DNA of 54,890 bases from an uncultured virus (IMG/VR IMGVR_UViG_3300013127_000001) (IMGVR_UViG_3300013127_000001); one strand, 5' to 3'; counted from the stretch's first letter, positions 18,670 to 51,413 are shown. The notes: generated by a model not told the origin, from the letters alone. Numbers and translations: made by a program.

Positions 18670-19138
18670 CCCTCAGTGAATCTAAGTTCTTATCTTCACT
18701 TCAGGTGTGTTCGTCTCGGCGGTCGGCCGATTGCGTCATTGCCCTCAATGAATCTAAGTTCTTATCTTCACTTCAGGTTCCGATCACGATGCAGGATTAC
18801 GTCGAGGCTCACAGCCCTCAGTGAATCTAAGTTCTTATCTTCACTTCAAATGTGCTCGTCTCAGCGATCGGCCGATCGCGTCATTGCCCTCAATGAATCT
18901 AAGTTCTTATCTTCACTTCAGGCTATCGTCGAGAAAGAGATGGATCTCGAGTATGGGCCCTCAGTGAATCTAAGTTCTTATCTTCACTTCAGGGTGTTCC
19001 ATTGTCATCGAACATGAGTTTTCCTCCGAGCCCTCAGTGAATCTAAGTTCTTATCTTCACTTCAGGATGGCTGAAAGGCCAAGCTGCGATCGATCACATC
19101 CTCCCTCAGTGAATCTAAGTTCTTATCTTCACTTCAGG
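18670..19138 (-). CRISPR. CRISPR array 1: 7 repeats, 6 spacers (35-37 nt)
   Basis: 36-nt repeat CCTGAAGTGAAGATAAGAACTTAGATTCA(C/T)TGAGGG (minus strand) with leftmost + coordinates 18670, 18742, 18815, 18887, 18958, 19031 and 19103. Confidence 0.97.
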
Positions 19139-19273
19139 GGCCATCAGGTTTGACCCTGAATATCCCTGACTTTTAATGGCATTCTGCGAGGGGTTAAATC
19201 ACTCAAAGTGTTTAACCCATCGCTGTCGGCCTAAAGGTGGCCATCTCTAAACGTATCTTAAGACACGTCTAGG
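19139..19273 (-). ncRNA. Structured scaffold (omegaRNA/tracrRNA-like), copy 1, overlapping the effector stop codon
   Basis: 135-nt sequence conserved in five copies, contiguous with the first repeat; its stems covary between copies. Confidence 0.75.
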
Positions 19274-20631
19274 ACTTGAGCGATCTGCGAGAGGTTTCCG
19301 GCATTTCCTAACCAGCCCCTATCTCGCAACCACTTAATTACGTAACCAGCCTCAAATACCTCATTGCCAGCTTCTTTTCGACCTGTCACGCGATGGTTGT
19401 CAAACAAAGCGTGCCAATGGTTTTCTCTGCTTACCAATTTGTTGATTGGCTGATTGTCGATCGCCAACACTACACAATCAGGCACGAATGTGTAGTATGA
19501 CTCCAACCGACCTGCTTTACCTTTCGTCCTGCCAATCTTTACGCGCTCTGCGTTTGGATCGTACAAAAAGTAAATATGAGGCTTGTCTAAGTCTGGCTCT
19601 GCTATTGTCTGCGTTTTGTCAAAAATCGCAATACCGCATAGCTCCGCTTTGTGCTTGATTTTTTCCTTAAGATCACTCCATGGAAATTGTTTCAAATAAC
19701 TCTTGATGGTAAAGTCGATTTCGATTGTTGCGACTTTGCATCTATCAGCCTTTTTAACAATCTGCGACGCCAGCTCGTGAACTTTAGTTTTGAGTCTGCG
19801 TTGCATTTTTTCCGCAAATGCTCTCGATTGTTCTCGCAACCGTTTTCTGTCAGCGCCTTGTTTTCTTGCCTGTCTCCACTGTTGATTACGTCGGACGCTT
19901 GTTTCTTTCCAAATCCGAACGTCTTCACCAGTAAAAACAAAAGGACTTTGCCTTCGTGGAATAGTCATCGCAACAAGAAATTCAATGCCGCTCACTACTT
20001 CAACAGCACCGGTTCGTTCTTTTTCAACTTTCTTAGGCAACTTAACACTAATGCCAAGCATCGCTTTGTGCTTTTTATCTCCTGCCTTTTCAATCCACAA
20101 CTTACTGTCGCCTATACCGTCAATTGAAATTGACTTACGCAAACCTGCTATTTGATCTCGGTAGTTACTTCCGCCTGCCAAACGAACGTCATAGGTTCCG
20201 TCAAACAGTCGAATTCTTGCAACTAAAAATTCTCCATCGTCAATTAGCTTAAAATGGCCTTGACTCTGTAGCAGCGGCCACGGCATGGTACGATAGTTAC
20301 GAAGACTTCGATCGCCTCGCTGAACTTTCCACCGATCTTGCAAGTAGTTTTTCTCTACGGCACGACATAATGCCGAAACAATCGCGCCCTTACCTGGTAC
20401 CGCATCCAATAACGGATCGTGGCATGCAGGATATGTATACAACTTTTTGCACTTTTCATCGCGGATATCGTCTTGCCGCGCACATTCGCTTGCCGCCAAG
20501 TTTGAAACTCTACGCGAAGCATCAAGTGACTTTCGTATAGCTGCGTAAAGTTCTGTTTTGGTATGCGAGATACACTCAGCAACCGGAACACAAATTGTTC
20601 GGACGTATACGTCCTTGATTTTTTTAACCAT
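19258..20631 (-). CDS. TnpB/Cas12f-like RNA-guided protein with degenerate RuvC, fused to a C-terminal GIY-YIG-clan (T5orf172/MUG113-like) domain
   Basis: TnpB-like VRTICVP N-terminus, bridge helix KTKVHELASQIVKKA, and FPWSDLKEKIKHKAELCGIAI. RuvC-I reads VEVVSG (no Asp). C-terminus HIYFLYD..RVKIGRT..RL..ENHWHALF..HR..NEVF. Flanked by arrays. ATG 20631 follows an AAAGGG RBS (ORF track start 20664). Confidence 0.8.
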   Translation of the reverse strand: MVKKIKDVYVRTICVPVAECISHTKTELYAAIRKSLDASRRVSNLAASECARQDDIRDEKCKKLYTYPACHDPLLDAVPGKGAIVSALCRAVEKNYLQDRWKVQRGDRSLRNYRTMPWPLLQSQGHFKLIDDGEFLVARIRLFDGTYDVRLAGGSNYRDQIAGLRKSISIDGIGDSKLWIEKAGDKKHKAMLGISVKLPKKVEKERTGAVEVVSGIEFLVAMTIPRRQSPFVFTGEDVRIWKETSVRRNQQWRQARKQGADRKRLREQSRAFAEKMQRRLKTKVHELASQIVKKADRCKVATIEIDFTIKSYLKQFPWSDLKEKIKHKAELCGIAIFDKTQTIAEPDLDKPHIYFLYDPNAERVKIGRTKGKAGRLESYYTFVPDCVVLAIDNQPINKLVSRENHWHALFDNHRVTGRKEAGNEVFEAGYVIKWLRDRGWLGNAGNLSQIAQVLDVS

Positions 20632-20676
20632 AATTTTCCCTTTCGTTAAAATGACGTCAAACACCGACGATACGGG

Positions 20677-20785
20677 CCCTCAGTAAATCTAAGTTCTTAT
20701 CTTCACTTCAGGCTGTTTCCCATTTCATCAAGTTCGTATCGGTTTCCCGCCCTCAGTGAATCTAAGTTCTTATCTTCACTTCAGG
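20677..20785 (-). CRISPR. CRISPR mini-array 2: 2 repeats, 1 spacer (37 nt)
   Basis: Repeats at 20677-20712 (variant) and 20750-20785. Confidence 0.95.
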
Positions 20786-20916
20786 GGCCATCAGGTTTGA
20801 TTCTGAATATCCCTGACTTTTATTGGCATTCTGCGAGTCACTAAATCACTCGAAGTGTTTAGCCCCTCGCCGTCGGCCTGAAGGTGGCCATCTCTAGTTA
20901 TGTTGCCACAACTAGG
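20786..20916 (-). ncRNA. Structured scaffold, copy 2
   Basis: Homologous to 19139-19273; 5' hairpin CUAGUUGUG-GCAA-CAUAACUAG has a GNRA loop. Confidence 0.75.
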
Positions 20917-21421
20917 ACCTCAAAGCTTTAATTCCAGCTTTGATTTTTCCTTTCAATCTTTCCCATCGGCGACGCCAACGTGATTGACCTATGTGTGCTT
21001 GAAATCTCTCTGCATGCACGATCAAGTCAGCCACGGTGTACATCGGACCTTCGCCGCCAACGCTAGCTTCTCGAATGCCAGCATGCTGAATACCTGAATA
21101 ACAGGTACCCAGCATTGCCATCACAGCTACCTGCGCAGCAGGTTCGCATTGCGTAAAACCTGAACGAGCTAAGCCTTCGGCCATAGACACGTTAGGCTCC
21201 TGCGCTGCGCTAGCTAAATACCGACAATAAGCACCGCAAGCTTCCCCTAAATCATCAATTGTGATTCCTTCGCGAGCCAGAACTTCGTTGAGCTCCGGCC
21301 AAGCGTAGTCCTCTAAACGACCCGCAACTAGGTTCATAACTTCTTGAAAGTTATGCGCAACATCGCGAGCCGGATTATACAATCGGCGATCATCCGCAGT
21401 CATTCTAGCCTGTAGTGTCAT
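20912..21421 (-). CDS. Hypothetical protein
   Basis: 169-aa ORF whose TAG stop lies inside the scaffold 5' hairpin. Confidence 0.7.
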   Translation of the reverse strand: MTLQARMTADDRRLYNPARDVAHNFQEVMNLVAGRLEDYAWPELNEVLAREGITIDDLGEACGAYCRYLASAAQEPNVSMAEGLARSGFTQCEPAAQVAVMAMLGTCYSGIQHAGIREASVGGEGPMYTVADLIVHAERFQAHIGQSRWRRRWERLKGKIKAGIKALRS

Positions 21422-22332
21422 CGTTTTCTTTCTTCACGAGAACAAGTCAAACAGAGTTCTGGATACTCTATTTCAGTTGGATCAAAAAAGCTAACACAAG
21501 CGCATTTTGGACAGAGCTTTCTTTCGTATGTTGCTTCGTGCGTTGCAAGAACACAGCGATCAACTCCAATAGGACACATGTAACATTCTAAAGTATTCGG
21601 AAACTTTTTTATGCAAGGTGTTCTAGCCCTGTCTCTTCCTTCAATCAATCGTTTATTGTACTCAGTTGTTGCGCTTGTGTGACCTACCTCTATCACAAAT
21701 GGATCAGGTTGCGAGCGTACGGGGTCTAGCAACAGAAAGCATCGTAGCCCGTAAAACTGCATCGGATTACGATACAGTCCTGTATTCTGCTGTTCTCCAC
21801 GACTATTAATCCTAGAACGACTAAACCCAAAACCATAACCTGACGAGTTTTTGTAAACTGATAGGTAATTGGTTTTTTTGAAGGACCAGAATTGAGTCAA
21901 CCGTAATGGAACAACGCTGCCAGCTAAACTTTGAAAAGACAAAAAATTGACCAAGTTACCAAATCGACGAACAGTCTGTATTTCACAAACTTGAGCTGGA
22001 ATCCATTCAAACTCTTTTTGCCCGTTCCATTTCGGTACTGGTTGCTGTTCTAGTAGCTTTTCAAGATTACCTGCCAACCTCCAAGCCGTATCTACCAACA
22101 AGTCTTGCGTTAACTCCTTCTTAAGAAGATGCTTGACGCTTTCGTGAACTGTGTGTCGCAAAACCAATCCAGGCAGATTTGCATGCAAACGATCAACAAA
22201 TGCCTGGAAAGTGCCTGCAACCAATTTATGACCCAGGAAGTCCGAGGACTTCGCCGTCAGTTTGTCCCGCCTCTTCAAGATCTGACTGACGGATAAGTGA
22301 GGCAATGGGGGATGACTCGAGTTGGTCGTCAC
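21418..22332 (-). CDS. Hypothetical protein with Cys-rich C-terminus
   Basis: 304-aa ORF with several CxxC motifs. Confidence 0.7.
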   Translation of the reverse strand: MTTNSSHPPLPHLSVSQILKRRDKLTAKSSDFLGHKLVAGTFQAFVDRLHANLPGLVLRHTVHESVKHLLKKELTQDLLVDTAWRLAGNLEKLLEQQPVPKWNGQKEFEWIPAQVCEIQTVRRFGNLVNFLSFQSLAGSVVPLRLTQFWSFKKTNYLSVYKNSSGYGFGFSRSRINSRGEQQNTGLYRNPMQFYGLRCFLLLDPVRSQPDPFVIEVGHTSATTEYNKRLIEGRDRARTPCIKKFPNTLECYMCPIGVDRCVLATHEATYERKLCPKCACVSFFDPTEIEYPELCLTCSREERKR

Positions 22333-22750: not shown

Positions 22751-22752
22751 TG

Positions 22753-27025: not shown

Positions 27026-27060
27026 AAAAAAACGGGGTCAGGGCTTAGCCCTAACCCCGT
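27026..27060 (-). terminator. Rho-independent terminator downstream of array 3
   Basis: ACGGGGTTAGGGCT-A-AGCCCTGACCCCGT followed by a T run on the minus strand. Confidence 0.8.
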
Positions 27061-27084: not shown

Positions 27085-27325
27085 CCCTCAGTAAATCTAA
27101 GTTCTTATCTTCACTTCAAGCAATTTCAACGTCACCACTGGAGATCCCTCAGTGAATCTAAGTTCTTATCTTCACTTCAGGTAAGTGTGATGAAGACCGG
27201 GTAGCCTAACCCAATTGCCCCTCAGTGAATCTAAGTTCTTATCTTCACTTCAGGTTTTTCATCGCCACAACCTAAAGCAACCTCCACGACCCTCAGTGAA
27301 TCTAAGTTCTTATCTTCACTTCAGG
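27085..27325 (-). CRISPR. CRISPR array 3: 4 repeats, 3 spacers (25, 37, 35 nt)
   Basis: Repeats at 27085 (variant), 27146, 27219 and 27290. Confidence 0.96.
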
Positions 27326-27456
27326 GGCCATCAGGTTTGACCCTGAATATCCCTGACTTTTAGTGGCATTCTACGATGGACTAAATCACTCGAAGTGTTT
27401 AACCCATCGCCGTCGGCCTGAAGGTGGCCATCTCTAGTCATGTTGCCACAACTAGG
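27326..27456 (-). ncRNA. Structured scaffold, copy 3
   Basis: Homologous scaffold; 5' hairpin CUAGUUGUG-GCAA-CAUGACUAG contains the upstream gene's stop codon. Confidence 0.75.
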
Positions 27457-29236
27457 ACTTCTTACCCTTTGGAGGTGTTGAAGTTCGTTTGCTGCTTCGA
27501 GCAAGACCTTTCGCCTTTGACAGGTGATTGTTCAATTGCTCTTGCACTGCGGAATTATCTACCTCGTCGTCAAAGTCGTCAGACTTTTCTTCTTCAGCAT
27601 CGTCTTCCTCATCGTCTTCGTCATCAAAATCCTCATCCTCGAGCTCATCGTCATCAAGCTCGTCTTCGTCAAGCTCTTCCTCGTCTTCATCGTCGAAATC
27701 GTCTTCGACTTCAAAAGGAGGCTTTTTCTTCGTTGGATTTGGTTTTGATTTCGTTGCAACAACAGGCTCGTCATCAAAAGATTCCTCTTCATCAGACTGA
27801 GCAGCGTTGACGTCTTCCTCATCGTCTTCAAATTCGTCGACCAAGTCAGCAGCACTCTTTGGTTTGTCTGCTTTCTTCGTAGTCTTGGTCTTTGTCGCAG
27901 GTGTAGTAGTTTGCACTACTTCCTCTTCGACGTCGTCCTCATCTTCCTCTTCGTCGTCCATGTCAGGCTTTTGAACTAACACGGCTTTTCGATTCTTGAG
28001 AACAGTTTGAACGGAATCGAAATTCAAGTATTCCGGATTCGACATCCAGCAAAATTCAAGCAGCTTTGGAACTTGTTTGTACGCCTTTGCAATGAGAAGG
28101 CATCGCTCCTCAATTGTCGGCTCGTGCAACAAATACGAATCCTCAGGATCCGCGCTGCTTTCTTTCCAAAAGAACAAATGCTTCGACAAGATATTGTCGA
28201 CCTGTTCTTTCGACAAATCAGCTGTCAATTTGCCGTTTGGTCCTTCATACACCTTCGACACCGCTGCTTCGTACTCAACCACTTGCGGATTAAGGATACC
28301 GCGGAACGTTGAGTTCTTTTCAATCTCTACCTTTTCTGGGTTGTACAGCGTGAAAAACACGCCGCCTTTAACTATCCCAGAACTAGCATCGAAATGACCG
28401 CAAGGATCTCCGTATTTGAACATAACGGATGGATTGACATTCTCGTCGCCTTCCCAATCTTGCTTTTCAGCGCAGCAAAGCTGTAACAGCTTTTTGCCAG
28501 CACTAATCGGGAGCTGAAGAATAACCAAAGGATCTTCGGGCCCTTCGCCAAGCGGAATTCCATTACGAGCGATATCCTTCGAGACGTCCTTACCAGACTT
28601 TCGATACTCAATGTGCTCTCGCGTCAAGTCCAGTGATGGACCATTTTCGTAAACAGAGCACACAACAAAGTGGCGTTGCTTGAACGGACCCAAAGCTGGG
28701 TTTTCTTTGTTTGTCATCAAAGCATTCCACTTTGGATCCCAAGCACGACCGTGACCAAATTCGCCCGTGTCTCGAGCTTTCTTCGCCGTTACATACAGCT
28801 TGACATACGGTTCGTCCCAGAACCCGACACCCTCATAGACGCTAGCCTTACTACGAGCGATGATGTAAGAACACGGCTCAGCATCTTCTGGTCTAGACAG
28901 GTAATTGCCGATAGTGTCCTTGTTAATACCAGCATACTGCACGCAGTACGCAGGCTCTGAAATGGACATCCCACCAAGACCAGCCATGTCGACTGCGGAC
29001 AAACGACCGTTTAGCAACGCGTCACTGGGGTTCTCTGGATCAAGCATGTTCCAGATACGAATGACGGTTTTTCCGTTCTTGTAGCAACGGAGACGATCAA
29101 ACCGAACATTCTTGAGCTTTGGATTGATGCTGAAGTCTCCTTTCGGAGTCATCGCAAATCCGTCATCCTTCGTACTGTCCAACTGTCGATTTACCGACTC
29201 ACGAGTACGTGGCACCAAACTTCTTTTCTTACGCAT
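27452..29236 (-). CDS. Putative single-stranded DNA-binding/replication protein with a long acidic tail
   Basis: Globular N-terminus plus an Asp/Glu-rich C-terminus; located between tmk and recA. Confidence 0.5.
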   Translation of the reverse strand: MRKKRSLVPRTRESVNRQLDSTKDDGFAMTPKGDFSINPKLKNVRFDRLRCYKNGKTVIRIWNMLDPENPSDALLNGRLSAVDMAGLGGMSISEPAYCVQYAGINKDTIGNYLSRPEDAEPCSYIIARSKASVYEGVGFWDEPYVKLYVTAKKARDTGEFGHGRAWDPKWNALMTNKENPALGPFKQRHFVVCSVYENGPSLDLTREHIEYRKSGKDVSKDIARNGIPLGEGPEDPLVILQLPISAGKKLLQLCCAEKQDWEGDENVNPSVMFKYGDPCGHFDASSGIVKGGVFFTLYNPEKVEIEKNSTFRGILNPQVVEYEAAVSKVYEGPNGKLTADLSKEQVDNILSKHLFFWKESSADPEDSYLLHEPTIEERCLLIAKAYKQVPKLLEFCWMSNPEYLNFDSVQTVLKNRKAVLVQKPDMDDEEEDEDDVEEEVVQTTTPATKTKTTKKADKPKSAADLVDEFEDDEEDVNAAQSDEEESFDDEPVVATKSKPNPTKKKPPFEVEDDFDDEDEEELDEDELDDDELEDEDFDDEDDEEDDAEEEKSDDFDDEVDNSAVQEQLNNHLSKAKGLARSSKRTSTPPKGKKS

Positions 29237-29919: not shown

Positions 29920-32900
29920 TTACCATTTCCTTTTCTTTGGAAACCTCTCAGGTTCAACAAGATTTGCAACAGGCCTTGCTTTACTAGCCAGGACAACAGA
30001 ACGCTGCGGTTTAGCTTCTCCAGGTTTGCTGTAGTTCACAACGCAACCTTCAACTCCACCGTGACCAGTAGGTAGATTACGTTCGACTGCTTGCTCGAAA
30101 GTTAATCCTTCGCCCCAATGATCCATCACCTCAGCTTCAATACCAAGATAGTAAGGCCCCGAACCTGTTGGTATCCCTTCCAAATTAGAAGGGTAAATTG
30201 GCACAGCCTTTCTCATGTACGTCGGTAACACATGCTCACACACGTGCTTAACGTATTTGTAAGGAACCTCCAACAAAATCGCATCGTGAATTTGTAGGAG
30301 GATTGTGAACATGTCCCGACCTTTTCTAAATTGCTTCATCTTGTAGTCGTGGATGTAAGCCAACGCACGACTTACAGCAGAAGCAATCATACTTTGAATC
30401 GGATAGTTCATTGCTTGACGTTCAAACTCAGCAGCCAAAGCTAGGTCACCGGCAGAATCAGGAAACCGACGAAAACGTCCGTAACAGTTACACAGGTATC
30501 GCTCTTTTACAAGTTCTCCAGTTCCAGGATCTACATAGCGACCGGTAGCCCTTTGCTGACACTCCTCAAAAAACGGCTTCAGTAACGGATACATTTGAAA
30601 AATCGCGTTGATAACGGCTTGCGCCTCATCGACGGTAATTTCAATTCCCTGCTCTTTAGCAGCAACAGCAATAGCTTTTGCCCCTCGACCGTAAGCAATA
30701 CCAAAAATAACCGACTTAGCCACAATACGAATGTGCTTTTTACCGATTGAAGCCAAACCACTTTTGGTCGGCAAACAATTCAGCTTAAACGCAAACACGG
30801 CCACATTAGAGTGAATGTCGTAGTAGTCTGGGTGATCTTCTGGTAACTGATTTCGTGTGGCATGCTCAATCATGTTAGGATCACCAGACATGACTGCCAT
30901 ACCAAACAACTCAGCACCTACGTAATCTGCCTCAATCAACACATGACCCGGAGACGCTTTCAGTACACTCCGCAGACTGTACTTGTACTCGTCGCCCAGA
31001 AGCCGCTTGTAGTCAGGGTCCCGCTGCTTGCTGATATTCTGCAAGTTGGGGCGGGCACTCGACCACCGGCCGGTTTCCTTGGTCTGGTAAATGTGAGTCC
31101 GGACCTTTCCGTCGTCGCAGGTCATTGACGCTAGACCGTCCTCGTATGACCAATTACCGTCGTCATCAAAAACAGCTTCACCAGTATCGTCATCTGTTAC
31201 AGGTGGACGCAAAACTGTTTTGAGAACCTGATCCAGAAATCGGTAATCTCGTAACGTGTTGATCAACCTTGCAGCGTTGGCATTAGGAGCTTGCTGCGCC
31301 ATCAAAGACAAGGCTTGCTTATTCGTGCTAGGAGCATGTTCGTGTTCCTTATGCGCTCGAATAATTTCAATCCACGGTTTTGGTGGTTTACCTGTATCAA
31401 ACAAAGGTGTCAGCGATAAGCTAATTGCAGTCTCAGGTCTAATCCTTACAGGTTTACCCGTTTCTTTATCTAGCCTTCCGTTGAGCTTATGTCCGAATAA
31501 AAACTCCTTTACATGTTGCGTTGATCGAATGTTGAAGTCTGGCCACTTGATTTCAGCTCGCAGTTGCTCCTCAATTTTTAATCTTGCTGCCACAAACCTT
31601 GCAGTCAAGAAATCAATTCGACCACGGTCTACGGTGATACCGCTACGATGAATTTCAAGAACTGAAGGTGTTGCAATTTGTGATTCCCAAAATGCTTCGC
31701 GGCAATTGTTTCCTTCGTAATCTTCGTCTAGTAACACAGAAAACTTGTAAAACAATCGCAGTGTCACATCTGCGTCATACATACCGTATGGCAACAGAAT
31801 CTCATCAGGGCACATACCGTAACCTTCAAGATCACCGCTTTTTAGCCCTTGCTCCTGACAATACTTCGTACGCCAATCCTGTAATTCTTTGTCGTACCGC
31901 GGTGCCGTCGTGTATCGCATAGCCAGTGTCTCAAGCTTGTAGGTTGCAGTCTCTTCAATTGCATGAGCCATTAAACCTGTGTCCGCGCCGCCTTCGTACT
32001 TGGTGCGATACCAAGCAGGAACATTTTCGCCTACTTTGAAACCGTCTGTGCGATATTGCTTTGACCGCTTTGTGTTCTTGTTCTCTTCAGTGATACGGTG
32101 GTCGTATAGCGGTACCAGAAAACATTCCTGAATATCAATTCCATACGCTACCAACCACTCAAGGTCAGCGTTGAAAAAATGACCAACTACGCGCTTACGT
32201 TTGAACGTAACACTCGTACCGTCGCCCAAATCCAACTCGCCTCCCTTGAAAAAGGTATTCAACAAAGCAATCGTTTTAGTCAATATGCAGCGATGATTGA
32301 CGTAACCATCTCGAAACCCTTCAACAACTTCACCGCCAGGTTCGTGCAGCTTAATCCCTACAGCTTTCTTAGGAGCCCATGCGAACTGTATCGTACGCAT
32401 ATAGCTACCTTTGTTTACCGGATGCTGTCCATGCCATTCCGCGTCAACAGCGATAACGTTGTCTTCTGCTTGTTGCTCAATCTCGATTAGAGTTTGAAGC
32501 AAGTCTGCGTGGTTATCGACAACTCGATGATCTACCTTTTCGGTTGAACCGACATCTACGTTGTTAAGCAGCGCCACAAAACGCGCAACGCCGTTTTCAA
32601 GCTGCCTCGCCGCAGACTGGTCTCTGATCACTTGCTTTGGATGAACGACAGTCATGACTTTGGCTTCTCGCCAATGATTGTCTCCATCCTTTTCAGATAA
32701 AGCTGCGTTATACCGGAAAGTTTCAACGCGACCTTCCATTTCAGCGACACCGGCAGATGTGCCAAGAAGCACTTTGCTTGCATCTGCGCCAAGGCACAAA
32801 ATGAATTTGGGTTGTACGATCTTCAGCTCTTGGTAAAGCAGGTGGAAACAGTCTTTTATCCAAACGGCTTTAAGCGTAGTCTTCCAGTCTGGTGGGCGAA

Positions 32901-33477
32901 ATTTGACTAGGTGAGTAACGTAGAAACGTCCAACGCCTTTAGCTTTTAATCGCCTAAAGATATCCAATAACAAGACCCCGTCTTCGCCTACCATACAGCG
33001 ACCAGACTTCTCCTCAGGTAGCCATGGATTCTTGTTGATAATCATGACATCCGCAGCACGAGGACCAGTTGCTTTATCCGCACCCCACAAATGTCCAGGA
33101 ACGAACGTAGCTTCTTTCTCTTGATGAGGACCGACTTCAACAGGCAGCGTAAATCCTGGGTCACGAATCGCAGAACGAATCAAGGACAACAACTTGTCAC
33201 TGTAAATCAACCGACGCTCGGTCGACTTCTTACCCTCTTCGTTTTTAACCACCTCTTCAACTACTCTCGATTCTTCGTCTCCCAAAGCTTGCACATAGCT
33301 TAGAAAAGCTGAATTAGGCGGTAGCGGAGGTAAACCAGGTGCCGTCAATGGAAATATCGCCAGACCTTGCTGCATTTCAGCCAATCTTTTCAGGTAAACC
33401 TGTTGAATGACTGGATTACCTGTTGAAGCTGTTTGCGGCACAGTTTCGCCAAAAATTTTGACTTTACGTCGAACCAT
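29920..33477 (-). CDS. polA: Family A DNA polymerase with N-terminal uracil-DNA-glycosylase-like and 3'-5' exonuclease domains
   Basis: UDG4-like VKFRPP, ELKIVQPKFILCLG and VVHP; exonuclease VDAE, FNAD, YDAD; TGRWSS.PNLQN; motif A ADY, motif B KSVIFGIAYG, motif C QIHD. Confidence 0.95.
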   Translation of the reverse strand: MVRRKVKIFGETVPQTASTGNPVIQQVYLKRLAEMQQGLAIFPLTAPGLPPLPPNSAFLSYVQALGDEESRVVEEVVKNEEGKKSTERRLIYSDKLLSLIRSAIRDPGFTLPVEVGPHQEKEATFVPGHLWGADKATGPRAADVMIINKNPWLPEEKSGRCMVGEDGVLLLDIFRRLKAKGVGRFYVTHLVKFRPPDWKTTLKAVWIKDCFHLLYQELKIVQPKFILCLGADASKVLLGTSAGVAEMEGRVETFRYNAALSEKDGDNHWREAKVMTVVHPKQVIRDQSAARQLENGVARFVALLNNVDVGSTEKVDHRVVDNHADLLQTLIEIEQQAEDNVIAVDAEWHGQHPVNKGSYMRTIQFAWAPKKAVGIKLHEPGGEVVEGFRDGYVNHRCILTKTIALLNTFFKGGELDLGDGTSVTFKRKRVVGHFFNADLEWLVAYGIDIQECFLVPLYDHRITEENKNTKRSKQYRTDGFKVGENVPAWYRTKYEGGADTGLMAHAIEETATYKLETLAMRYTTAPRYDKELQDWRTKYCQEQGLKSGDLEGYGMCPDEILLPYGMYDADVTLRLFYKFSVLLDEDYEGNNCREAFWESQIATPSVLEIHRSGITVDRGRIDFLTARFVAARLKIEEQLRAEIKWPDFNIRSTQHVKEFLFGHKLNGRLDKETGKPVRIRPETAISLSLTPLFDTGKPPKPWIEIIRAHKEHEHAPSTNKQALSLMAQQAPNANAARLINTLRDYRFLDQVLKTVLRPPVTDDDTGEAVFDDDGNWSYEDGLASMTCDDGKVRTHIYQTKETGRWSSARPNLQNISKQRDPDYKRLLGDEYKYSLRSVLKASPGHVLIEADYVGAELFGMAVMSGDPNMIEHATRNQLPEDHPDYYDIHSNVAVFAFKLNCLPTKSGLASIGKKHIRIVAKSVIFGIAYGRGAKAIAVAAKEQGIEITVDEAQAVINAIFQMYPLLKPFFEECQQRATGRYVDPGTGELVKERYLCNCYGRFRRFPDSAGDLALAAEFERQAMNYPIQSMIASAVSRALAYIHDYKMKQFRKGRDMFTILLQIHDAILLEVPYKYVKHVCEHVLPTYMRKAVPIYPSNLEGIPTGSGPYYLGIEAEVMDHWGEGLTFEQAVERNLPTGHGGVEGCVVNYSKPGEAKPQRSVVLASKARPVANLVEPERFPKKRKW

Positions 33478-33479
33478 AA

Positions 33480-34562
33480 TTACCTCTTGTTCCAAGAGAC
33501 AGTTACACCTTGCTCAGCGGCTTGCTGCAAGATGTAAGGCCTTAAAAAATCACGATCGAGTGAACCAGGATCTGTGCCGTCAGGTAAGTACACTGCGCAA
33601 AATCCGGAATTTAACTGGTCGTGTAGCGATGAAACGATTGCCGCTACTTGTGATGCAATCTTGTCTTTGACGTCCGGGTCATATAGCAACACACCACCGT
33701 AATCCTTAAAGTGTTTGCGAAACAGGGTTTGTTGCGGTTGCGTGAATGAAGCTCCAAGCGTGCATACCGCTTGAGGTCCTATCTTCCACACGTCCGTAAC
33801 ACCTTCAACCACTATACCTGTTTGATACTTTGCTGCGTTTCCGAGGTTATACAAGACTTGACGTCTTGGAGTTCCTGGAGCCGTGTAGTACTTCGGTAAG
33901 TGCGATAGTTTCCAATCAATGTCGTAAGCTGCGCGAGCCTGCCAACCGACCATTTTTTTGTTGTGGTAGATTGGAATGATTATCCGTTCTTGGCAGATAT
34001 AACGCGGAGACTCGCTGCACCAGTGCACGTTCCAAAATTTTCCGATCTTGTCTGGATCAAATCCGCGACTTGTCAGATAAACATTGGCTTCATGCTCTGG
34101 CGGAAGCTGATCGATACGGGTTACTTTGCCTGGCCAAGTCATTCGTATTTGATCAACATCAACTTCACGACCTTCCGCAATTGTGGCCTTGCGCAAACTG
34201 ACTAGCTTTTGCCCGCACAACATTTCAGCTAATTCCTGATATGCGTGAGGTGCTTTCGATGCCAGTGAACAACCGGCATTAAAGCAAAAGGCTAACTGTG
34301 TTTGCGATCTACCAAACTCGTCATCTGTACCATACCGATGATTAATGTAACACCGATATCGCGTGTCATTGCAGAAAGGACAACAAACTGCGTAGTATTC
34401 TCCAGGATGAGTGATCACCGATTTAGGTTGTCCAGTAATCAAATCCGTCGTCAATCGGCGAGTTTGTTTTTCCCCGGGATTTTTAATGCGCACATGTTTG
34501 AACGTTGCTTTACAACGTCGAAACAAAGCCCGATTAAGCGCTTTTTTCTCGTCATTGTCCAT
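33480..34562 (-). CDS. DNA primase (Zn finger plus TOPRIM)
   Basis: CPFCND, RIIIP, PKYY, VEGVTD, YDPD and DPG motifs. Confidence 0.9.
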   Translation of the reverse strand: MDNDEKKALNRALFRRCKATFKHVRIKNPGEKQTRRLTTDLITGQPKSVITHPGEYYAVCCPFCNDTRYRCYINHRYGTDDEFGRSQTQLAFCFNAGCSLASKAPHAYQELAEMLCGQKLVSLRKATIAEGREVDVDQIRMTWPGKVTRIDQLPPEHEANVYLTSRGFDPDKIGKFWNVHWCSESPRYICQERIIIPIYHNKKMVGWQARAAYDIDWKLSHLPKYYTAPGTPRRQVLYNLGNAAKYQTGIVVEGVTDVWKIGPQAVCTLGASFTQPQQTLFRKHFKDYGGVLLYDPDVKDKIASQVAAIVSSLHDQLNSGFCAVYLPDGTDPGSLDRDFLRPYILQQAAEQGVTVSWNKR

Positions 34563-46428: not shown

Positions 46429-46460
46429 AAATTTTCCTTGTAGAGTTGAGGTAAATGAAA

Positions 46461-46487
46461 CAAAAGCCCCGAATTACGCATCGGGGC
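46461..46487 (-). terminator. Possible terminator
   Basis: GCCCCGA-N8-TCGGGGC followed by TTTTG on the minus strand. Confidence 0.5.
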
Positions 46488-46646
46488 CACCGCGGAACGG
46501 AGTCGTTCTTTCCGTGGTTAAGGGCAAATGAGACCCCTGGCACTCACGGAGCACCGCCAATTTAGTCCGGTCACTCCGAGACTAGGTTTGGCAACCTTTG
46601 CTGCGCTTGCGCAGTTAGCATTGTACCACAAAAGAAGACGTTTTGT

Positions 46647-47015
46647 CTACAGCACAAGTTGCGAATTCGCAGCTTGTGCTATTTATCCTCTACGAGGATA
46701 TGTAGGGCTGGCTTAAACCAGCTCTACTCATATAAAAAAATCTAATGCAGATTTTTTGTAGCCAAAAGTTTTGCGGCAACTCAACAGCCTAGGAAGAGAC
46801 GCCGCCAGTACATCATCTTTTAGGTATTTTTAGAAACTCAAATAGGTACTTCGTGGCCGTACTCCCTTCAGAGGAGCCGTTGGAGGGTTTCACTTCTCCA
46901 GCGTCGATTCGCCCACCACTTTTCCCGAGCCAAAAAGGGCCTACACACGCGAGGTTTTACATATCCTCGTAGAGGATAAATAGCACAAGCTGCGAATTCG
47001 CAACTTGTGCTGTAG
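46647..47015. repeat. Perfect 58-bp inverted repeat pair (46647-46704 and 46958-47015) around a 253-bp non-coding core
   Basis: The arms are exact reverse complements. Each contains a 30-bp near-palindrome centred on GAATTC and a tatcctc-N3-gaggata hairpin. Confidence 0.92.
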
Positions 47016-47041
47016 GCTAAAAACCCCTCTTTTGGGTATTT

Positions 47042-47356
47042 TTACTGAAGATGTAACCGGTTAGGCAGTTGAAACTCTGCCAGAAGTCTTTGACACTTGC
47101 GTATAGTAATTTCCCCCAAATTGGGTACTGACGCAAGTTGTGTACCTGTGACCTGAGCTAAATCCCCCAGTGTGAAAATTTTTTGATTTTCAAGAGTGTT
47201 AACCACCCGAACGGGTAAGCCGACATCAGACAGCGTTACCTGATAAAGCTCTTTAATCCGACGACGTTCCTTTTCATCGTCGGACATGAATTCCAACCAC
47301 TCTGGATCTGGCTGTTTGCGTCTCTTACGCTTGGAGGGGCCTCCATGCACTTCCAT
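47042..47356 (-). CDS. Stand-alone RNA polymerase alpha C-terminal domain-like protein
   Basis: LSDVGLPVRVVNTLENQKIFTLGDL...LASVPNLGEIT matches the alpha-CTD HhH consensus. Confidence 0.85.
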   Translation of the reverse strand: MEVHGGPSKRKRRKQPDPEWLEFMSDDEKERRRIKELYQVTLSDVGLPVRVVNTLENQKIFTLGDLAQVTGTQLASVPNLGEITIRKCQRLLAEFQLPNRLHLQ

Positions 47357-47369
47357 TAGAAATTCTCCC

Positions 47370-47753: not shown

Positions 47754-48061
47754 TGTTCACTCTCTATCTCTGTTGGTGGTTTAAGTTGCGTCCAAACTTC
47801 AGACATTGCACCTACAGCTTCTTCTTTTGATATGTGAAGAAGTGCAGCTCGCAGCGTTTCAGCGGCTTGACCTTGCTTGTCAAGCTTTCGGAACGTGTAA
47901 CTGTCACGATCGATTGCTTGTCGCCAGATACGCTTACCTGGTTCGCAAAGATACACATCAATTTCCCAATGTGGCCCTGAAGCAATGTAGTCACAAGAAA
48001 ACTTGACAACAATTTTGACTTTAGAACCGTCTTTTCGCTTTAAGATTTTTTCGTGTCGCAT
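47726..48061 (-). CDS. Hypothetical protein
   Basis: 111-aa ORF. Confidence 0.6.
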   Translation of the reverse strand: MRHEKILKRKDGSKVKIVVKFSCDYIASGPHWEIDVYLCEPGKRIWRQAIDRDSYTFRKLDKQGQAAETLRAALLHISKEEAVGAMSEVWTQLKPPTEIESEQWVRIFYGR

Positions 48062-48082
48062 GACTTGTCTTTCTTCTCTGAA

Positions 48083-48268
48083 TCATTTAACAGACTGCTT
48101 CTTTGGCCTACCAGCAGCAATGATCGGAGACTTCACTTTCAGCTTTTTAGCGATCGCATTCCTAACCCACTGATAAACACTAATACCCTCCCTCTCCGCC
48201 GCTTCGTCAACCAATGGCTGCAATTCACCAAGAAAAAGCGTAATTCTTTTAGATTTAACTCGCTTCAT
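48083..48268 (-). CDS. Ribbon-helix-helix-like DNA-binding protein
   Basis: KRITLFL...AAEREGISVYQWVRNAI. Confidence 0.65.
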   Translation of the reverse strand: MKRVKSKRITLFLGELQPLVDEAAEREGISVYQWVRNAIAKKLKVKSPIIAAGRPKKQSVK

Positions 48269-48587
48269 GTAAGTTGTCCCCTAGCGAAAGCGGAGGTGTA
48301 AATTTCCAAATGTGTAACTCTGAGAATCCAACAGGCAGGCGAACACCGGTGTCTTGAAACACTGTCGGCATCAAGTTCAACAGTTGTTCTACCCAGCCTG
48401 AGTTTTCATTGTATGTCTTTACAGCAATTTCACCTGGTTTGAGTGGATAGTCTGTATTGACACTGATTCGACCAAAAGGCCCATCTTCTCCGTTAGCAAA
48501 CACAGCCAGCTTTCCGTTGTGAAAGTGGCCAACTGCAATTGTGATTTCGACTTCTTCGCCATCACAAAAAGTAAGAACTGTTTTCAT
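48255..48587 (-). CDS. Hypothetical protein (DUF4313-like)
   Basis: GPFGRISVN...KTYNEN...TG...GF pattern. Start MKTVLT at 48587. Confidence 0.6.
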   Translation of the reverse strand: MKTVLTFCDGEEVEITIAVGHFHNGKLAVFANGEDGPFGRISVNTDYPLKPGEIAVKTYNENSGWVEQLLNLMPTVFQDTGVRLPVGFSELHIWKFTPPLSLGDNLHEAS

Positions 48588-48600
48588 TTGTTCCTTTCTC

Positions 48601-48891
48601 TTAAACTCCATACAAGATGTGTTTGATTTGATCGTACTCGTAGTACTGCATATCAATTGAAATGCCTTTTTCTTCTTGAACACAAAACCGCAGCATTTCT
48701 AGCGCGGCAGGGTGTTCTTCTTTTACTGTAGCAACTACTTTGGTTAAAAACTCCATGTCACTTTCAGGAATGCTGTCCCAAAGGTTGTGATAGAAACACT
48801 CGTAGTCATCGTAAATTCGATAACCGTAAGTTACGACTTTGCTTCGGACGTTGTGAAACTCGGTCGGAATGATTTCGACAATGTTCGACAT
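48601..48891 (-). CDS. Hypothetical protein
   Basis: 96-aa ORF. Confidence 0.6.
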   Translation of the reverse strand: MSNIVEIIPTEFHNVRSKVVTYGYRIYDDYECFYHNLWDSIPESDMEFLTKVVATVKEEHPAALEMLRFCVQEEKGISIDMQYYEYDQIKHILYGV

Positions 48892-48896
48892 TGTGT

Positions 48897-49205
48897 TTAC
48901 CCTGTATAAGGAAACATGAACAAAACATACTTATGACCAAAAATTGTCACGGTATAATAATTGCCGTCGTGCAGTCTTTGCAGCGTTGGCATAAGGTCTT
49001 TTTCCATTGCGGTATCTTTCATCCTCAGCATCCCGTCTGCGTCGTCGTAATAAACACGATACGCTTCTAAATGATGATAGCTACCGTCAATTACCACTGT
49101 AGTTAGTAATCTGTCTAGCTTAGCATCTTCGTTCTTAATGTCGGTCCAACCGACAGGACGCCAAGCTGTTTCAGGAATTTCTAACTTTACAAAGTTGCTT
49201 GCCAT
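48897..49205 (-). CDS. Hypothetical protein
   Basis: Start MASNFV at 49205 after GAGG. Confidence 0.6.
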   Translation of the reverse strand: MASNFVKLEIPETAWRPVGWTDIKNEDAKLDRLLTTVVIDGSYHHLEAYRVYYDDADGMLRMKDTAMEKDLMPTLQRLHDGNYYTVTIFGHKYVLFMFPYTG

Positions 49206-49207
49206 AA

Positions 49208-49441
49208 TTACCTCGACAAATTTACAGAAGACCAACTAAAAGAAGCACGTTTTTTGGCAAACTCAGCGTCTTCTAACGCGCGCTGCCATCGAAAATGATC
49301 ATCAGGCCAACCTTTATCTTCAAAGATTGTCAGTGCGTGCTTGCACTCAGCAATGATCTTGTCGTGGTTGCCTTCGTTAAGTACTCGAGTTAACCTTCGT
49401 TTGAGATTGGAATACTCGCGTTGTGTTAATGTCCAAGTCAT
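49208..49441 (-). CDS. Hypothetical phage protein
   Basis: 77-aa ORF with GWPDDHFRWQRA. Confidence 0.6.
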   Translation of the reverse strand: MTWTLTQREYSNLKRRLTRVLNEGNHDKIIAECKHALTIFEDKGWPDDHFRWQRALEDAEFAKKRASFSWSSVNLSR

Positions 49442-49446
49442 TTGAG

Positions 49447-49749
49447 TTAAACCTTGTTGCGAATTTCATCTGCGGACAAGAAACCAATAACTACTGACGT
49501 GTCGCTGGCTAGGCCGCGGGGACTGAAAGGGTGATCTGGAATGGTTTTGAACGTGTTGTTCGGACCGTAAGGTATAATTACACGAGAACCGAACCAGCTT
49601 GAATCCATCAAAGCTGCTTCACCCATGAACCAACCATCGCACTGATGTTGTGCGAGTTGGTTACGTAGGATGTCTAGCAGCTTGTCTGGTGTTGACTGTT
49701 GTGTTTCGCAGTACTTGGCTGCAAAAACAGAAAATGGCATCTGTTCCAT
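49447..49749 (-). CDS. Hypothetical protein
   Basis: 100-aa ORF. Confidence 0.6.
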   Translation of the reverse strand: MEQMPFSVFAAKYCETQQSTPDKLLDILRNQLAQHQCDGWFMGEAALMDSSWFGSRVIIPYGPNNTFKTIPDHPFSPRGLASDTSVVIGFLSADEIRNKV

Positions 49750-50045
49750 TACTTATTGCCTTTGCTGTAAAGCTGTTCGTAATCAATCACGCTCAGCGTT
49801 TTAGGTAATTGTTGATCCAACGTGTTCTTTGCCTGAACTAGCACGGCCATTGCTACAAACTCACGCCAGCTCATGTTGCAAGCAAGTGCTGCGGTTTGCA
49901 CTACAGCTACGTGCTTGGGTGTCAAAAAGAACGTCAGCGGTTTTGAGCGGTTAATCGCGCGTACTGAGTCTGCGGAAAACTCATTAAAGTTAGGGTCTAC
50001 GTTTACGACAGTGTTTTTCTTTTTGGTCACGATGTGATACCTCAA
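49749..50045 (-). CDS. Hypothetical protein
   Basis: 98-aa ORF; start uncertain. Confidence 0.5.
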   Translation of the reverse strand: MRYHIVTKKKNTVVNVDPNFNEFSADSVRAINRSKPLTFFLTPKHVAVVQTAALACNMSWREFVAMAVLVQAKNTLDQQLPKTLSVIDYEQLYSKGNK

Positions 50046-50055
50046 TTCCGGAATT
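50044..50055. promoter_or_regulatory. Palindrome AATTCCGGAATT, copy 3
   Basis: Perfect palindrome between a terminator and the next gene. Confidence 0.55.
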
Positions 50056-50063
50056 TAGAATAC

Positions 50064-50097
50064 AAAAAAAAAAGCCGGGCAGAACGCCTGCCCGGCT
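50064..50097 (-). terminator. Rho-independent terminator downstream of array 4
   Basis: gccgggcag-N5-ctgcccggc stem with an A10 run on its left side. Confidence 0.85.
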
Positions 50098-50163
50098 CGT
50101 GTAAAACTTGTCAACAACTAAACGCAGATTAGCTGTTTTTGACTTCGATCGGTGGTTTGCCGT

Positions 50164-50343
50164 CCCTCAGTGAATCTAAGTTCTTATCTTCACTTCAGGG
50201 GATCGTTCCGCAGCACAACACGCATGAACCAGTTACCCTCAATGAATCTAAGTTCTTATCTTCACTTCAGGGTGTAAGCAGGCTGTGAACGACCAATTGG
50301 CTTTAGCCCCTCAATGAATCTAAGTTCTTATCTTCACTTCAGG
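50164..50343 (-). CRISPR. CRISPR array 4: 3 repeats, 2 spacers (36 nt)
   Basis: Repeats at 50164, 50236 and 50308. Confidence 0.96.
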
Positions 50344-50478
50344 GGCCATCAGGTTTGACCCTGAATATCCCTGACTTTTAATGGCATTCTGCGAGGCATT
50401 AAATCACTCGAAGTGTTTAGCCCCTCGCTGTCGGCTTGAAGGTAGCCATCTCTAAACGTATCTTAAGACACGTCTAGG
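50344..50478 (-). ncRNA. Structured scaffold, copy 4
   Basis: Homologous scaffold with a compensatory GGCU/AGCC stem. Confidence 0.75.
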
Positions 50479-50487
50479 TGATAGCAT

Positions 50488-50515
50488 ATTGTGACTACAA
50501 CTTCATCCTAGTCAA
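50488..50515 (-). promoter_or_regulatory. Putative sigma70-type promoter for scaffold/array 4
   Basis: TTGACT-N16-CACAAT, homologous to 51133-51160. Confidence 0.5.
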
Positions 50516-50822
50516 GGTCAAGCGGTTTTGCTTTAGCAATGACCAATCGTGACCAACAGATGTCACACATTGGATGTTCTACGTCCGCCTTGTCGCACTC
50601 GCACTCCATGCCACTGACCATAGCGTTGAGCCGCTCTAGCAGTTCCGGTGCTGCCGCAATGAGGCGGGAATTAGCCTTGCGCTCATTCTCCGGCCTAGAT
50701 TCGCAGCTGTCGTTTGAGATGTAAGCAACATCCCAATTTTCTCCCTCGACATTAGCAAGTATTACGTCAGATCCATTTGGGCCGTCGTCATAAATTGCCC
50801 ACGGTCCCGGTGTATGACTCAT
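50508..50822 (-). CDS. HTPGPW-family small phage protein
   Basis: MSHTPGPW...ANSRLIAAAPELL...IAKA. Confidence 0.75.
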   Translation of the reverse strand: MSHTPGPWAIYDDGPNGSDVILANVEGENWDVAYISNDSCESRPENERKANSRLIAAAPELLERLNAMVSGMECECDKADVEHPMCDICWSRLVIAKAKPLDLD

Positions 50823-50823
50823 T

Positions 50824-51117
50824 TCACTCTCTCCTCCCCTCTGCTTTAGCGATAGCGGCAGCCCCAGCCTGTTCGCATTTTTTTGCTTGGCGATAAGCGG
50901 CCATGTCAGGGTAGTCGTTAGGGTCGTCGCTAACGATATTGACAAGACCTATTAGTGCAGCTAACAGTTCCGGTGCTGCGGCAATGAGGTGGGCAGAGCA
51001 GTCAATGACGTTAAATGCGACCGGCTCCTCGGGCGAATCAATCCGCACTCCATTGTCATACTCGTTGCCATCATCGTCCTCGTATGCAATCGTCCACGGT
51101 TCCGGTGTGTGATTCAT
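50824..51117 (-). CDS. HTPGPW-family small phage protein (tandem paralog)
   Basis: MNHTPEPW...AHLIAAAPELL...AIAKAEG; AAGGAG RBS. Confidence 0.75.
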   Translation of the reverse strand: MNHTPEPWTIAYEDDDGNEYDNGVRIDSPEEPVAFNVIDCSAHLIAAAPELLAALIGLVNIVSDDPNDYPDMAAYRQAKKCEQAGAAAIAKAEGRRE

Positions 51118-51132
51118 TTTTTGACTCCTTGA

Positions 51133-51160
51133 TTGACTAGGATTAAATTGTAGTTACAAT
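51133..51160 (+). promoter_or_regulatory. Putative sigma70-type promoter for scaffold/array 5
   Basis: TTGACT-N16-TACAAT ending 9 nt upstream of the scaffold start. Confidence 0.6.
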
Positions 51161-51169
51161 AGGCCATCA

Positions 51170-51304
51170 CCTAGACGTGTCTTAAGATACGTTTAGAGAT
51201 GGCCACCTTCAGGCCGACGGCGATGGGTTAAACACTTCGAGTGATTTAGTCCATCGCAGAATGCCACTAAAAGTCAGGGATATTCAGGGTCAAACCTGAT
51301 GGCC
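51170..51304 (+). ncRNA. Structured scaffold, copy 5 (opposite orientation)
   Basis: Reverse complement of the other scaffold copies. Confidence 0.75.
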
Positions 51305-51413
51305 CCTGAAGTGAAGATAAGAACTTAGATTCATTGAGGGCAGACAGTCGTCCGACCGCCTGAGCTACGATACCAGGCTTGAAGTGAAAATAAGAACTTA
51401 GATTCACTGAGGG
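51305..51413 (+). CRISPR. CRISPR mini-array 5: 2 repeats, 1 spacer (37 nt)
   Basis: Repeats at 51305-51340 and 51378-51413; the distal one carries 2 substitutions. Confidence 0.95.

Follow-up and report, generated by a model that had tools for sequence, protein, structure and literature searches.

We analyzed a DNA stretch of 54,890 nucleotides (nt) from an uncultured virus (IMG/VR record IMGVR_UViG_3300013127_000001), which we refer to as the window. We observed that it encodes one small Cas12f-like effector together with five dispersed modules, each consisting of a conserved scaffold and a CRISPR array. The most unusual part of the system is the effector itself, which is a nuclease-swapped relative of Cas12f. 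We consider it rather probable that these parts make up a miniature type V-like CRISPR system, encoded by the phage, that belongs to the Cas12f or nuclease-dead Cas12f (dCas12f) lineage and acts by the mechanism described below. We put forward more tentatively, as something that falls somewhat short of probable, that a Cas12-lineage protein has dropped RuvC and cuts with a T5orf172/GIY-YIG domain, that its cassettes are semi-autonomous, recombining and possibly homing, and that its spacers are gained without Cas1-Cas2.

The effector (protein P0001 of our alignments) is encoded by a single gene, as the first-pass annotation of this DNA had claimed and as tblastn within the window confirmed. The AlphaFold model of the protein had a mean predicted local distance difference test (pLDDT) value of 85.9. 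When this model was used in Foldseek, we obtained AsCas12f (8j12, E = 5e-18), more Cas12f structures, TnpB (4e-9) and a TranC structure (7e-7). PADLOC identified Cas12f (2e-17) and Cas12u3 (4e-15) over residues 11-347, and a profile built from 23 family members matched AsCas12f among the PDB sequences (7wju, E = 1e-17). The Cas12f/TnpB fold, with WED, REC and the RuvC core, is present, and the Cas12f-like part occupies approximately residues 20-347.

The aspartate of RuvC motif I (GIDLG) aligns to a column of V, S, T or A beside a conserved Ser/Thr. The glutamate of motif II (IQMEDLT) corresponds to a one-residue deletion in the family, and only the next aspartate (D317) is retained. The alignment with Cas12f ends at approximately residue 347, ahead of the zinc finger and RuvC-III, and both are absent from the effector. 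The catalytic triad (Asp, Glu, Asp) is thus missing, and the RuvC site is predicted to be dead.

The region that follows the Cas12f-like part is approximately 110 amino acids (aa) long. It contains a T5orf172/MUG113 domain (GIY-YIG clan) at about residues 355-440, and then a tail. Among the 23 family members, Pfam recognized MUG113 in 12 (best 7e-9) and T5orf172 in 8 (best 5e-6). Residues H363, Y365, K376, G378, E414 and E435 are invariant in the family alignment, while an arginine lies in a gappy loop; the invariant Tyr, Lys-Ile-Gly and Glu positions are held across proteins that are 35-66% identical. The tail (WLGNAGNLSQIxQVLDVS) is invariant as well. Its codons change synonymously among relatives, therefore it is conserved as protein and not as RNA. 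The isolated domain was modelled with a pLDDT of 77.5, and the top rows of the VIA-align comparison, all weak, were HIGLE (Z 4.2), Slx1 (4.0), I-TevI (3.9), PD-T4-3 (3.8) and UvrC (3.7). Published work describes T5orf172 as a subfamily of GIY-YIG that is usual in phage homing endonucleases, whose DNA-binding parts can be exchanged, and reports that the nuclease activity of Odn of phage ICP1 needs a conserved glutamate (PMC8263062, PMC10448857).

The C-terminal domain was also seen in other arrangements. On a short contig (L018:1-1201) an array is followed by only the T5orf172-plus-tail part of the effector, and then by a scaffold and array, and two stand-alone proteins, P0140 (131 aa) and P0109 (207 aa), are made of this domain. 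These could represent a split form of the effector or a mis-assembly across repeats. In a related phage (L016:16896-17831) an N-terminal T5orf172 domain is fused to a Dam-type adenine methyltransferase.

A mismatch-tolerant scan for the 36-nt repeat (at most 2 mismatches per copy) detected 18 repeat copies in five arrays of 7, 2, 4, 3 and 2, in agreement with the first-pass annotation. There are 13 spacers of 25-37 nt, and 11 of them measure 36 or 37 nt. On the transcribed strand each array is preceded by a conserved scaffold of approximately 135 nt. A profile search of the window returned exactly five scaffolds, and all of them indeed start with CCTAG (19273, 20916, 27456 and 50478 on the minus strand, 51170 on the plus strand). 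Four modules (1-4) are read from the minus strand and only module 5 from the plus strand; modules 4 and 5 form an inverted pair around two phrog_1273 paralogues. The five modules are dispersed among phage replication genes. The coordinates are collected in Table 1.

Table 1. Features of the window, with positions counted from its first letter.
Feature	Position	Strand	Remarks
RusA-like / PD-(D/E)xK nuclease	17264-17731	minus	downstream of array 1, after the exonuclease
DEDDh-type exonuclease	17728-18639	minus	directly downstream of array 1; PADLOC 'CAS-associated DEDDh' 2e-5; PHROG DNA polymerase exonuclease subunit
Array 1	18670-19138	minus	7 repeats, 6 spacers
Scaffold 1	19139-19273	minus	nhmmer E 1e-51; starts within the effector's last five codons; continuous with first repeat of array 1
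Effector open reading frame	19258-20664	minus	GTG at 20664; likely start an internal ATG (457 aa), matching cluster member P0222
Array 2	20677-20785	minus	2 repeats, 1 spacer
Scaffold 2	20786-20916	minus	stem-1 sequence divergent, hairpin retained; profile search, covariation
Terminator-like hairpin after array 3	27032-27060	minus	13-bp stem, then T run
Array 3	27085-27325	minus	4 repeats, 3 spacers (one only 25 nt); terminal repeat degenerate
Scaffold 3	27326-27456	minus	profile search
Family-A DNA polymerase	29920-33495		1191 aa; N-terminal uracil-DNA-glycosylase-superfamily domain
Terminator-like hairpin after array 4	50072-50098	minus	12-bp stem, then T run
Array 4	50164-50343	minus	3 repeats, 2 spacers
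Scaffold 4	50344-50478	minus	profile search
Promoter-like site, module 4	50488-50515	minus	TTGACT, 16 nt, CACAAT; about 10 nt before scaffold start
Two paralogous small genes, phrog_1273	50508-51117	minus	145 and 97 aa; between inverted modules 4 and 5
Promoter-like site, module 5	51133-51160	plus	TTGACT, 16 nt, TACAAT; 10/12 matches; about 10 nt before scaffold start
Scaffold 5	51170-51304	plus	sole plus-strand module; inverted relative to module 4
Array 5	51305-51413	plus	2 repeats, 1 spacer; terminal repeat degenerate

The modules are tightly fitted to their neighbouring genes. Modules 1-3 start at the stop codon of the upstream gene or just ahead of it: the TAA of the effector (19258-19260) lies 13-15 nt inside scaffold 1, and the TAG of CCTAG is the stop codon of an open reading frame (ORF) at 20912-21421 in module 2 and of a 594-aa ORF at 27452-29236 in module 3. 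At module 4 a stop codon (50508-50510) overlaps the -35 hexamer of the promoter-like site. The claim that the upstream stop codon lies inside the module in four cases (19258, 20912, 27452 and, in the promoter part, 50508) was therefore correct, and terminator-like hairpins were found after both arrays for which they had been reported, 3 and 4. We did not find a promoter-like site of the module 4/5 type directly upstream of modules 1-3. Array 1 is followed without a gap by the ribosome-binding site and start codon region of the exonuclease gene, and array 2 ends approximately 45 nt upstream of the likely start codon of the effector. That scaffold-distal repeats are often the degenerate ones was true of arrays 2, 3 and 5, but the variant repeats are internal in array 1 and in array 4 they are the two proximal ones. 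Spacers 4 and 6 of array 1 (18706-18741 and 18851-18886) are variants of one sequence, identical at 32 of 36 positions, as though they were aimed at two alleles of a single target.

We aligned 19 sequences, each comprising a scaffold plus its first repeat, and analyzed them for covariation. The predicted RNA has a hairpin at its 5' end, then a second and a long third one, the 4-base-pair (bp) helix GCNN:NNGC and a further, small hairpin. An anti-repeat in the scaffold pairs over 5 bp with the bases that open the repeat, and the repeat also has a hairpin of its own. Further, a 4-bp pseudoknot joins the loop of hairpin 2 (CCTC or TCTC) to the last bases of the repeat (GAGG or GAGA), next to the guide. 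In this structure 87.2% of the cells were paired, compared with 33-42% for slid partners; the structure was derived from the same 19 sequences, which favours this measure but not the compensatory changes. Of 56 pairs, 37 changed on both sides. The covariation score was 0.458 (at most 0.129 for slid partners) and was reached by none of 500 shuffles. The GCNN:NNGC helix was 100% paired with two covarying positions, and the pseudoknot helix was 98.7% paired, with C-G replaced by U-A in 5 of the 19 sequences. Within the window stem 1 occurs as two very different sequences, and both of them form the hairpin. We conclude that the scaffold and the first repeat fold together as a single structured RNA that covaries strongly. 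No Rfam family matched the scaffold RNA. Cas12 tracrRNAs (trans-activating CRISPR RNAs) are described as characteristically pairing with the repeat's 3' end in a pseudoknot (10.1101/2025.01.20.633832). Here the anti-repeat helix and pseudoknot are predicted to leave the spacer as a 3' guide.

On this basis we propose the following mechanism. The effector retains the body with which Cas12f binds RNA and DNA. Modules 4 and 5 would be transcribed from their own sigma-70-like promoters, with transcription starting at the first bases of the scaffold, and modules 1-3 would be read through from the upstream gene. The first scaffold-repeat-spacer unit would act as a natural single guide, and later repeat-spacer units would be served in trans by the scaffold RNA in the manner of a tracrRNA. 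The complex may then bind foreign DNA that matches the spacer, belonging to competing phages, other mobile elements or the host, and the target would be cut or nicked by the T5orf172 domain and not by RuvC. Extra cassettes would raise the scaffold dose and spread guide expression over transcription units and times. New spacers would also be acquired.

We compared this organization with that of relatives. A word-indexed protein search returned 76 proteins including the query, at the 35-66% identity given above, and none was informatively named. An exhaustive profile search gave 1614 representatives at E ≤ 1e-3. They included approximately 35 full-length clusters of the effector's type and hundreds of 50%-identity clusters (P0110-P0221) of approximately 400-aa proteins, which comprise the Cas12f-like part only, with an equally dead core. 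These shorter relatives carry an N-terminal CxxC...CxxC motif and have neither the T5orf172 domain nor a Pfam match. The Atlas cluster nearest to them is mostly viral, which is a lead only, and a single one of them used as query found no viral locus. A set of 185,579 prokaryote species, each represented by one genome, yielded no relative of the effector.

We collected 19 loci (L001-L019) from viral and metagenome contigs, and two more through a scan with the repeat pattern. Of these 19 loci, 18 had the scaffold at the 3' end of their effector gene, and so had L046. Wherever the contig continues, an array of up to 15 repeats follows the scaffold. The carriers are varied phages, with a lambda-like portal and terminase (L004), a capsid gene (L002) or ParAB (L011). 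In L046, a related 101-kilobase (kb) phage, the sixth 'spacer' of the array (10000-10560, minus strand) copies approximately 36 nt of the 3' part of its own scaffold; it is either self-derived or a product of recombination between scaffold and array.

The number of modules differs among these phages. There are five in the window, two in each of L003 and L009, and one, with 7 repeats, in G002, a 101-kb record rated 96% complete; because relatives hold one or two, the modules are not fixed. The proposal that scaffold plus repeat is a duplicating cassette was thus upheld, the window holding five mosaic copies. The first-pass annotation had gone further and suggested that, if loading is efficient only for the scaffold-proximal spacer, modules are multiplied in order to multiply guides, and that host Cas1-Cas2 probably add the spacers. 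In this model the unit next to the scaffold would serve as a natural single guide. The model gains from the fact that scaffold and first repeat share a transcript and pair intramolecularly, while the anti-repeat helix of 5-6 bp and the pseudoknot of 4 bp are short, so that pairing in trans would be weak. The five modules of the window and the solo modules with a single repeat in L003 and L009 are also in its favour. However, in relatives we observed 15, 11, 9 and 8 well-conserved repeats behind a single scaffold, which argues that distal spacers are used and that the scaffold acts in trans, and the nearly complete G002 manages with its one module.

The part of the model that concerns host Cas1-Cas2 was not supported either. 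We scanned one genome for each of the 185,579 prokaryote species for three consecutive repeats, covering only those ending in CACTGAGGG. The pattern matched 22 loci, all of which were unrelated CRISPR repeats or coding tandem repeats, and none belonged to the repeat family of the window. Adaptation genes were not recognizable in the window, as had been stated before: PADLOC models of Cas1, Cas2 and Cas4 matched none of 180 of the 186 ORFs of at least 60 aa (the remaining six, at 53649-54756, were outside the scan), and Pfam detected no adaptation genes in the 60 main ORFs. Cas1 and Cas2 were absent from G002, G003 and G004, and the 150 ORFs that surround seven related loci included neither these two nor Cas4. 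In a published description, the wider Cas12f branch is tied to arrays but not to Cas1, Cas2 or Cas4 (PMC10691335). Therefore the missing adaptation genes are typical of the lineage, as far as that source goes, and not peculiar to this phage. With this evidence taken together, we regard the model of proximal loading and host-supplied spacers as quite unlikely.

The lack of a host array of this repeat family in the species genomes also bears on a decoy function, in which the scaffold-repeat units would be RNA anti-CRISPRs that soak up a host Cas12f-type effector. The phage has its own matching effector, the scaffold co-varies with the effector lineage in every relative, and real, variable spacers are retained. 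We find such a decoy hardly credible.

The modules of the window have exchanged sequence with one another. Stem 1 is identical in modules 1, 4 and 5, and 12-13 of its 27 positions differ in modules 2 and 3. The long hairpin groups the modules otherwise, 3 with 5 (1 difference) and 2 with 4 (2 differences). The trees of the two segments disagree, hence the exchange. Two assembled contigs, one joining scaffold 1 to spacer 4 (X8, skipping 216 nt, depth 3.8) and one joining a module-4-type scaffold to spacer 3 of array 3 (X7, depth 4.3), were not counted, because both junctions cross a repeat longer than the assembler's word.

The spacers turn over quickly. L002 and L005 are 97.5% identical over 9.8 kb and have no spacer in common. 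L014 and L015 (99.4% identical) share spacers 1-2 and differ in the rest, and L003 and L045, which agree at 99.85% in the sequence downstream of the array, have spacers 2 and 3 in common and differ in spacer 1 and an internal spacer. There is therefore no clean spacer polarity.

The mosaic exchange among the modules would also fit RNA-guided homing. In this reading the effector would be a homing endonuclease with a DNA-binding part that has become programmable by RNA. It would cut the alleles of relatives that infect the same cell, and during repair the cassettes, along with small genes next to them, would be copied in. Homing would lead to modules at gene boundaries and in variable number. 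T5orf172 is the usual domain of phage homing endonucleases, in which the DNA-binding parts can be swapped (PMC10448857), and TnpB, the ancestor, is described as an RNA-guided homing nuclease (PMC10690162). In the comparison of L003/L043 (3714-4211 and 5340-5550) with the 99.6%-identical L009, two of the three indels are small gene cassettes, each directly after a full or partial repeat. RecT, YqaJ, SSB or PD-(D/E)xK nuclease genes are frequent near the effector in related loci, and UvsX-like and RusA-like genes also stand beside the system in several loci; however, recombination genes are common in phage early regions anyway. Moreover, no spacer or trailing guide matched an 'empty site' in the fetched relatives, where cross-matches involved only shared flanks, and the spacers resemble ordinary hypervariable immune spacers. 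We therefore consider homing improbable as the main function.

Two further observations were made in the same loci. A partial repeat that lacks a scaffold is present at approximately 3714-3746 of L003. An element of approximately 175 nt with terminal inverted repeats, resembling a miniature inverted-repeat transposable element, is 100% identical between L003/L043 (4314-4484) and L045 (741-920); it is missing from that site in L009, and in L045 it is inverted and at another site.

Several observations weigh against the proposed mechanism. The match of P0001 to T5orf172 is weak (E = 9e-4, 20.2 bits, with a curated cut-off of 20 bits), the second GIY-YIG tyrosine is replaced by lysine, and Foldseek with the isolated C-terminal domain returned nothing at E ≤ 1e-3. 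In VIA-align, DNA-binding APSES/Mbp1 folds scored nearly as high as the GIY-YIG proteins (Z 3.3). The nuclease activity of this domain is a prediction, and so are the expression and processing of the guide RNA. Action in trans is assumed for a scaffold that is joined covalently to its own first repeat. The search for spacer targets gave no credible protospacer. It covered the 55-kb window, the 46 fetched loci (L001-L019 in the comparison), IMG/VR with a degenerate pattern made from spacers 4 and 6, isolate phages with the spacers of arrays 1, 3 and 4, and plasmids with those of array 1; for arrays 2 and 5 it was confined to the window. One plasmid match, to a Salipiger aldehyde dehydrogenase gene (34/38 bases), was rejected as chance, since it required a 2-nt gap. 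Finally, the phage genome probably measures approximately 200 kb and the window about one quarter of it, because the 45-kb IMG/VR record G001, which is the window's own sequence (99.993% over 45,107 bases), has a completeness rating of 22%, and because a member of the effector's 90% cluster was found on a 204-kb contig. Therefore a genome-wide lack of an adaptation module cannot be shown, and cas1 and cas2 could lie elsewhere in the phage genome.

Some of these points would suit a non-cutting RNA-guided binder, similar to TldR, Cas12m or dCas12f, that represses or redirects transcription or replication of its target. The T5orf172 domain would then act as a DNA- or protein-binding module, in keeping with the APSES-like folds among its weak structural matches. 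All three RuvC motifs are lost, and the nearest relatives of the effector are the hundreds of clusters of approximately 400-aa proteins that have a dead core and no T5orf172 domain. The known dCas12f and TldR proteins are transcription factors, as described in PMC13472631. On the other hand, the Tyr, Lys-Ile-Gly and Glu of the T5orf172 domain have stayed invariant in diverged proteins. Spacers that are wholly different in 97.5%-identical phages suit an arms race better than fixed regulation, and no spacer matches the available 55 kb of the phage's own genome. We judge a purely binding role to be unlikely, and we retain the phage-encoded, probably cutting CRISPR system as the preferred explanation.

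The window has the features of a large phage. Nearly all of its genes are carried by the minus strand. The annotation includes a tubulin/FtsZ-family protein (5156-6517; Pfam Tubulin 2e-8) comparable to PhuZ of large phages, glycosyltransferases, primase-like, helicase-like and SbcCD-like proteins, a UvsX-like recombinase, a thymidylate kinase and a dCTP deaminase. All isolate relatives of its DNA polymerase were at most 24% identical. In six sequencing runs from six studies, labelled as freshwater or freshwater sediment metagenomes, 71-86% of the words sampled from the effector region were present. A 104-aa protein (47042-47356) matches the C-terminal domain of the alpha subunit of bacterial RNA polymerase (9e-11). 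In a region where long ORFs are absent, a near-perfect 30-nt palindrome with GAATTC at its centre occurs twice, 331 nt apart (46651-46680 and 46982-47011), and the two copies are 93% identical.

If the T5orf172 domain is active, the effector would be a natural RNA-guided nuclease of 457 aa with a chemistry unlike that of the RuvC of Cas12, TnpB and their relatives. It would link two classes of phage weapons, homing endonucleases and CRISPR. The guide RNA stands between an omega-RNA and a tracrRNA plus array, and it bears on the splitting and re-fusion of type V guide RNAs. The fast turnover of spacers with no visible Cas1/Cas2 makes spacer gain of the Cas12f type testable in a defined phage family, and the dispersed cassettes, with and without their own promoters, are a natural case of guide expression from multiple loci.

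The system resembles type V-F CRISPR-Cas12f (Cas14, formerly V-U3) in the fold and small size of the effector and in the array downstream of its gene. In both, a long structured RNA of the tracr type contains an anti-repeat and forms a pseudoknot with the repeat's 3' end, and in Cas12f systems, too, adaptation genes are usually absent (PMC10691335). Unlike in Cas12f, the RuvC triad and zinc finger are gone here and a T5orf172 domain is in their place, the scaffold overlaps the end of the gene and shares one transcript with the array, and the cassettes are multiplied and dispersed.

The closest systems described in the sources available to us are the nuclease-dead Cas12f homologs, namely dCas12f linked to sigmaE and CRISPR-associated dCas12f (PMC10691335, PMC13472631). 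Altae-Tran 2023 describes Cas12f proteins that lost activity along with RuvC-III, half repeats fused to tracrRNA, and duplicated guide units (PMC10691335). Hoffmann 2026 describes dCas12f with sigmaE and also a cluster of CRISPR-associated dCas12f (PMC13472631). As in our effector, a C-terminal truncation of dCas12f removes RuvC-III and the zinc finger, RuvC-I and RuvC-II are mutated, and a new C-terminal domain is present; the guide RNAs are scaffold-repeat chimeras, and guide units are duplicated ('omega-RNA arrays'). However, dCas12f proteins are described as having a helix-turn-helix-like domain, as partners of a sigma factor or proposed repressors, and as residing on Bacteroidota chromosomes, whereas here the domain is T5orf172 and the carriers are phages. 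The hypervariable arrays (2 to 15 repeats) are retained here, in place of single chimeric guides. Pfam detected no sigma factor gene beside the effector in the window, so an rpoE link of the dCas12f type was not seen; in L016 a sigma-70-family ORF lies approximately 4 kb upstream of the effector. The effector is therefore neither a plain Cas12f, as it lacks the RuvC triad and zinc finger, nor a sigma-linked dCas12f, as it has no sigma link and has kept its arrays.

TnpB/OMEGA systems of IS200/IS605 elements share with this system a scaffold that begins inside the 3' end of the gene and a guide at the 3' end of the RNA. Stand-alone extra guide units elsewhere in the genome are described for OMEGA (PMC10691335), and the same is seen here. 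The differences are that we found no transposase (Pfam) and no transposon ends, that the gene is present in a single copy with a dead RuvC, and that the guides come from CRISPR arrays.

We found no paper on a natural fusion of GIY-YIG, T5orf172 or MUG113 to Cas12, TnpB or another RNA-guided effector; supplements and subscription-only papers lay outside the search, and an earlier mention is possible. In the accessible text of Altae-Tran 2023 and Hoffmann 2026, neither 'GIY' nor 'T5orf172' occurs (PMC10691335, PMC13472631). From the nuclease side, T5orf172 homing endonucleases and Odn, which is described as functionally replacing a CRISPR-Cas system, similarly combine the T5orf172 nuclease domain with an exchangeable DNA-recognition part (PMC10448857, PMC8263062). 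Those enzymes are described as recognizing DNA through CapR-like zinc fingers or RepA_N, and here this role would be played by a guide RNA in a Cas12f-like body. Engineered I-TevI-Cas fusions also tether a GIY-YIG nuclease domain to an RNA-guided DNA binder (PMC12663268). They are man-made, and the Cas nuclease is kept or mutated in them, as that source describes, whereas in the effector the arrangement is natural and part of RuvC has given way to a GIY-YIG-type domain. Should the T5orf172 domain be the active nuclease, this phage protein would be the natural counterpart of the engineered Tev-Cas fusions.

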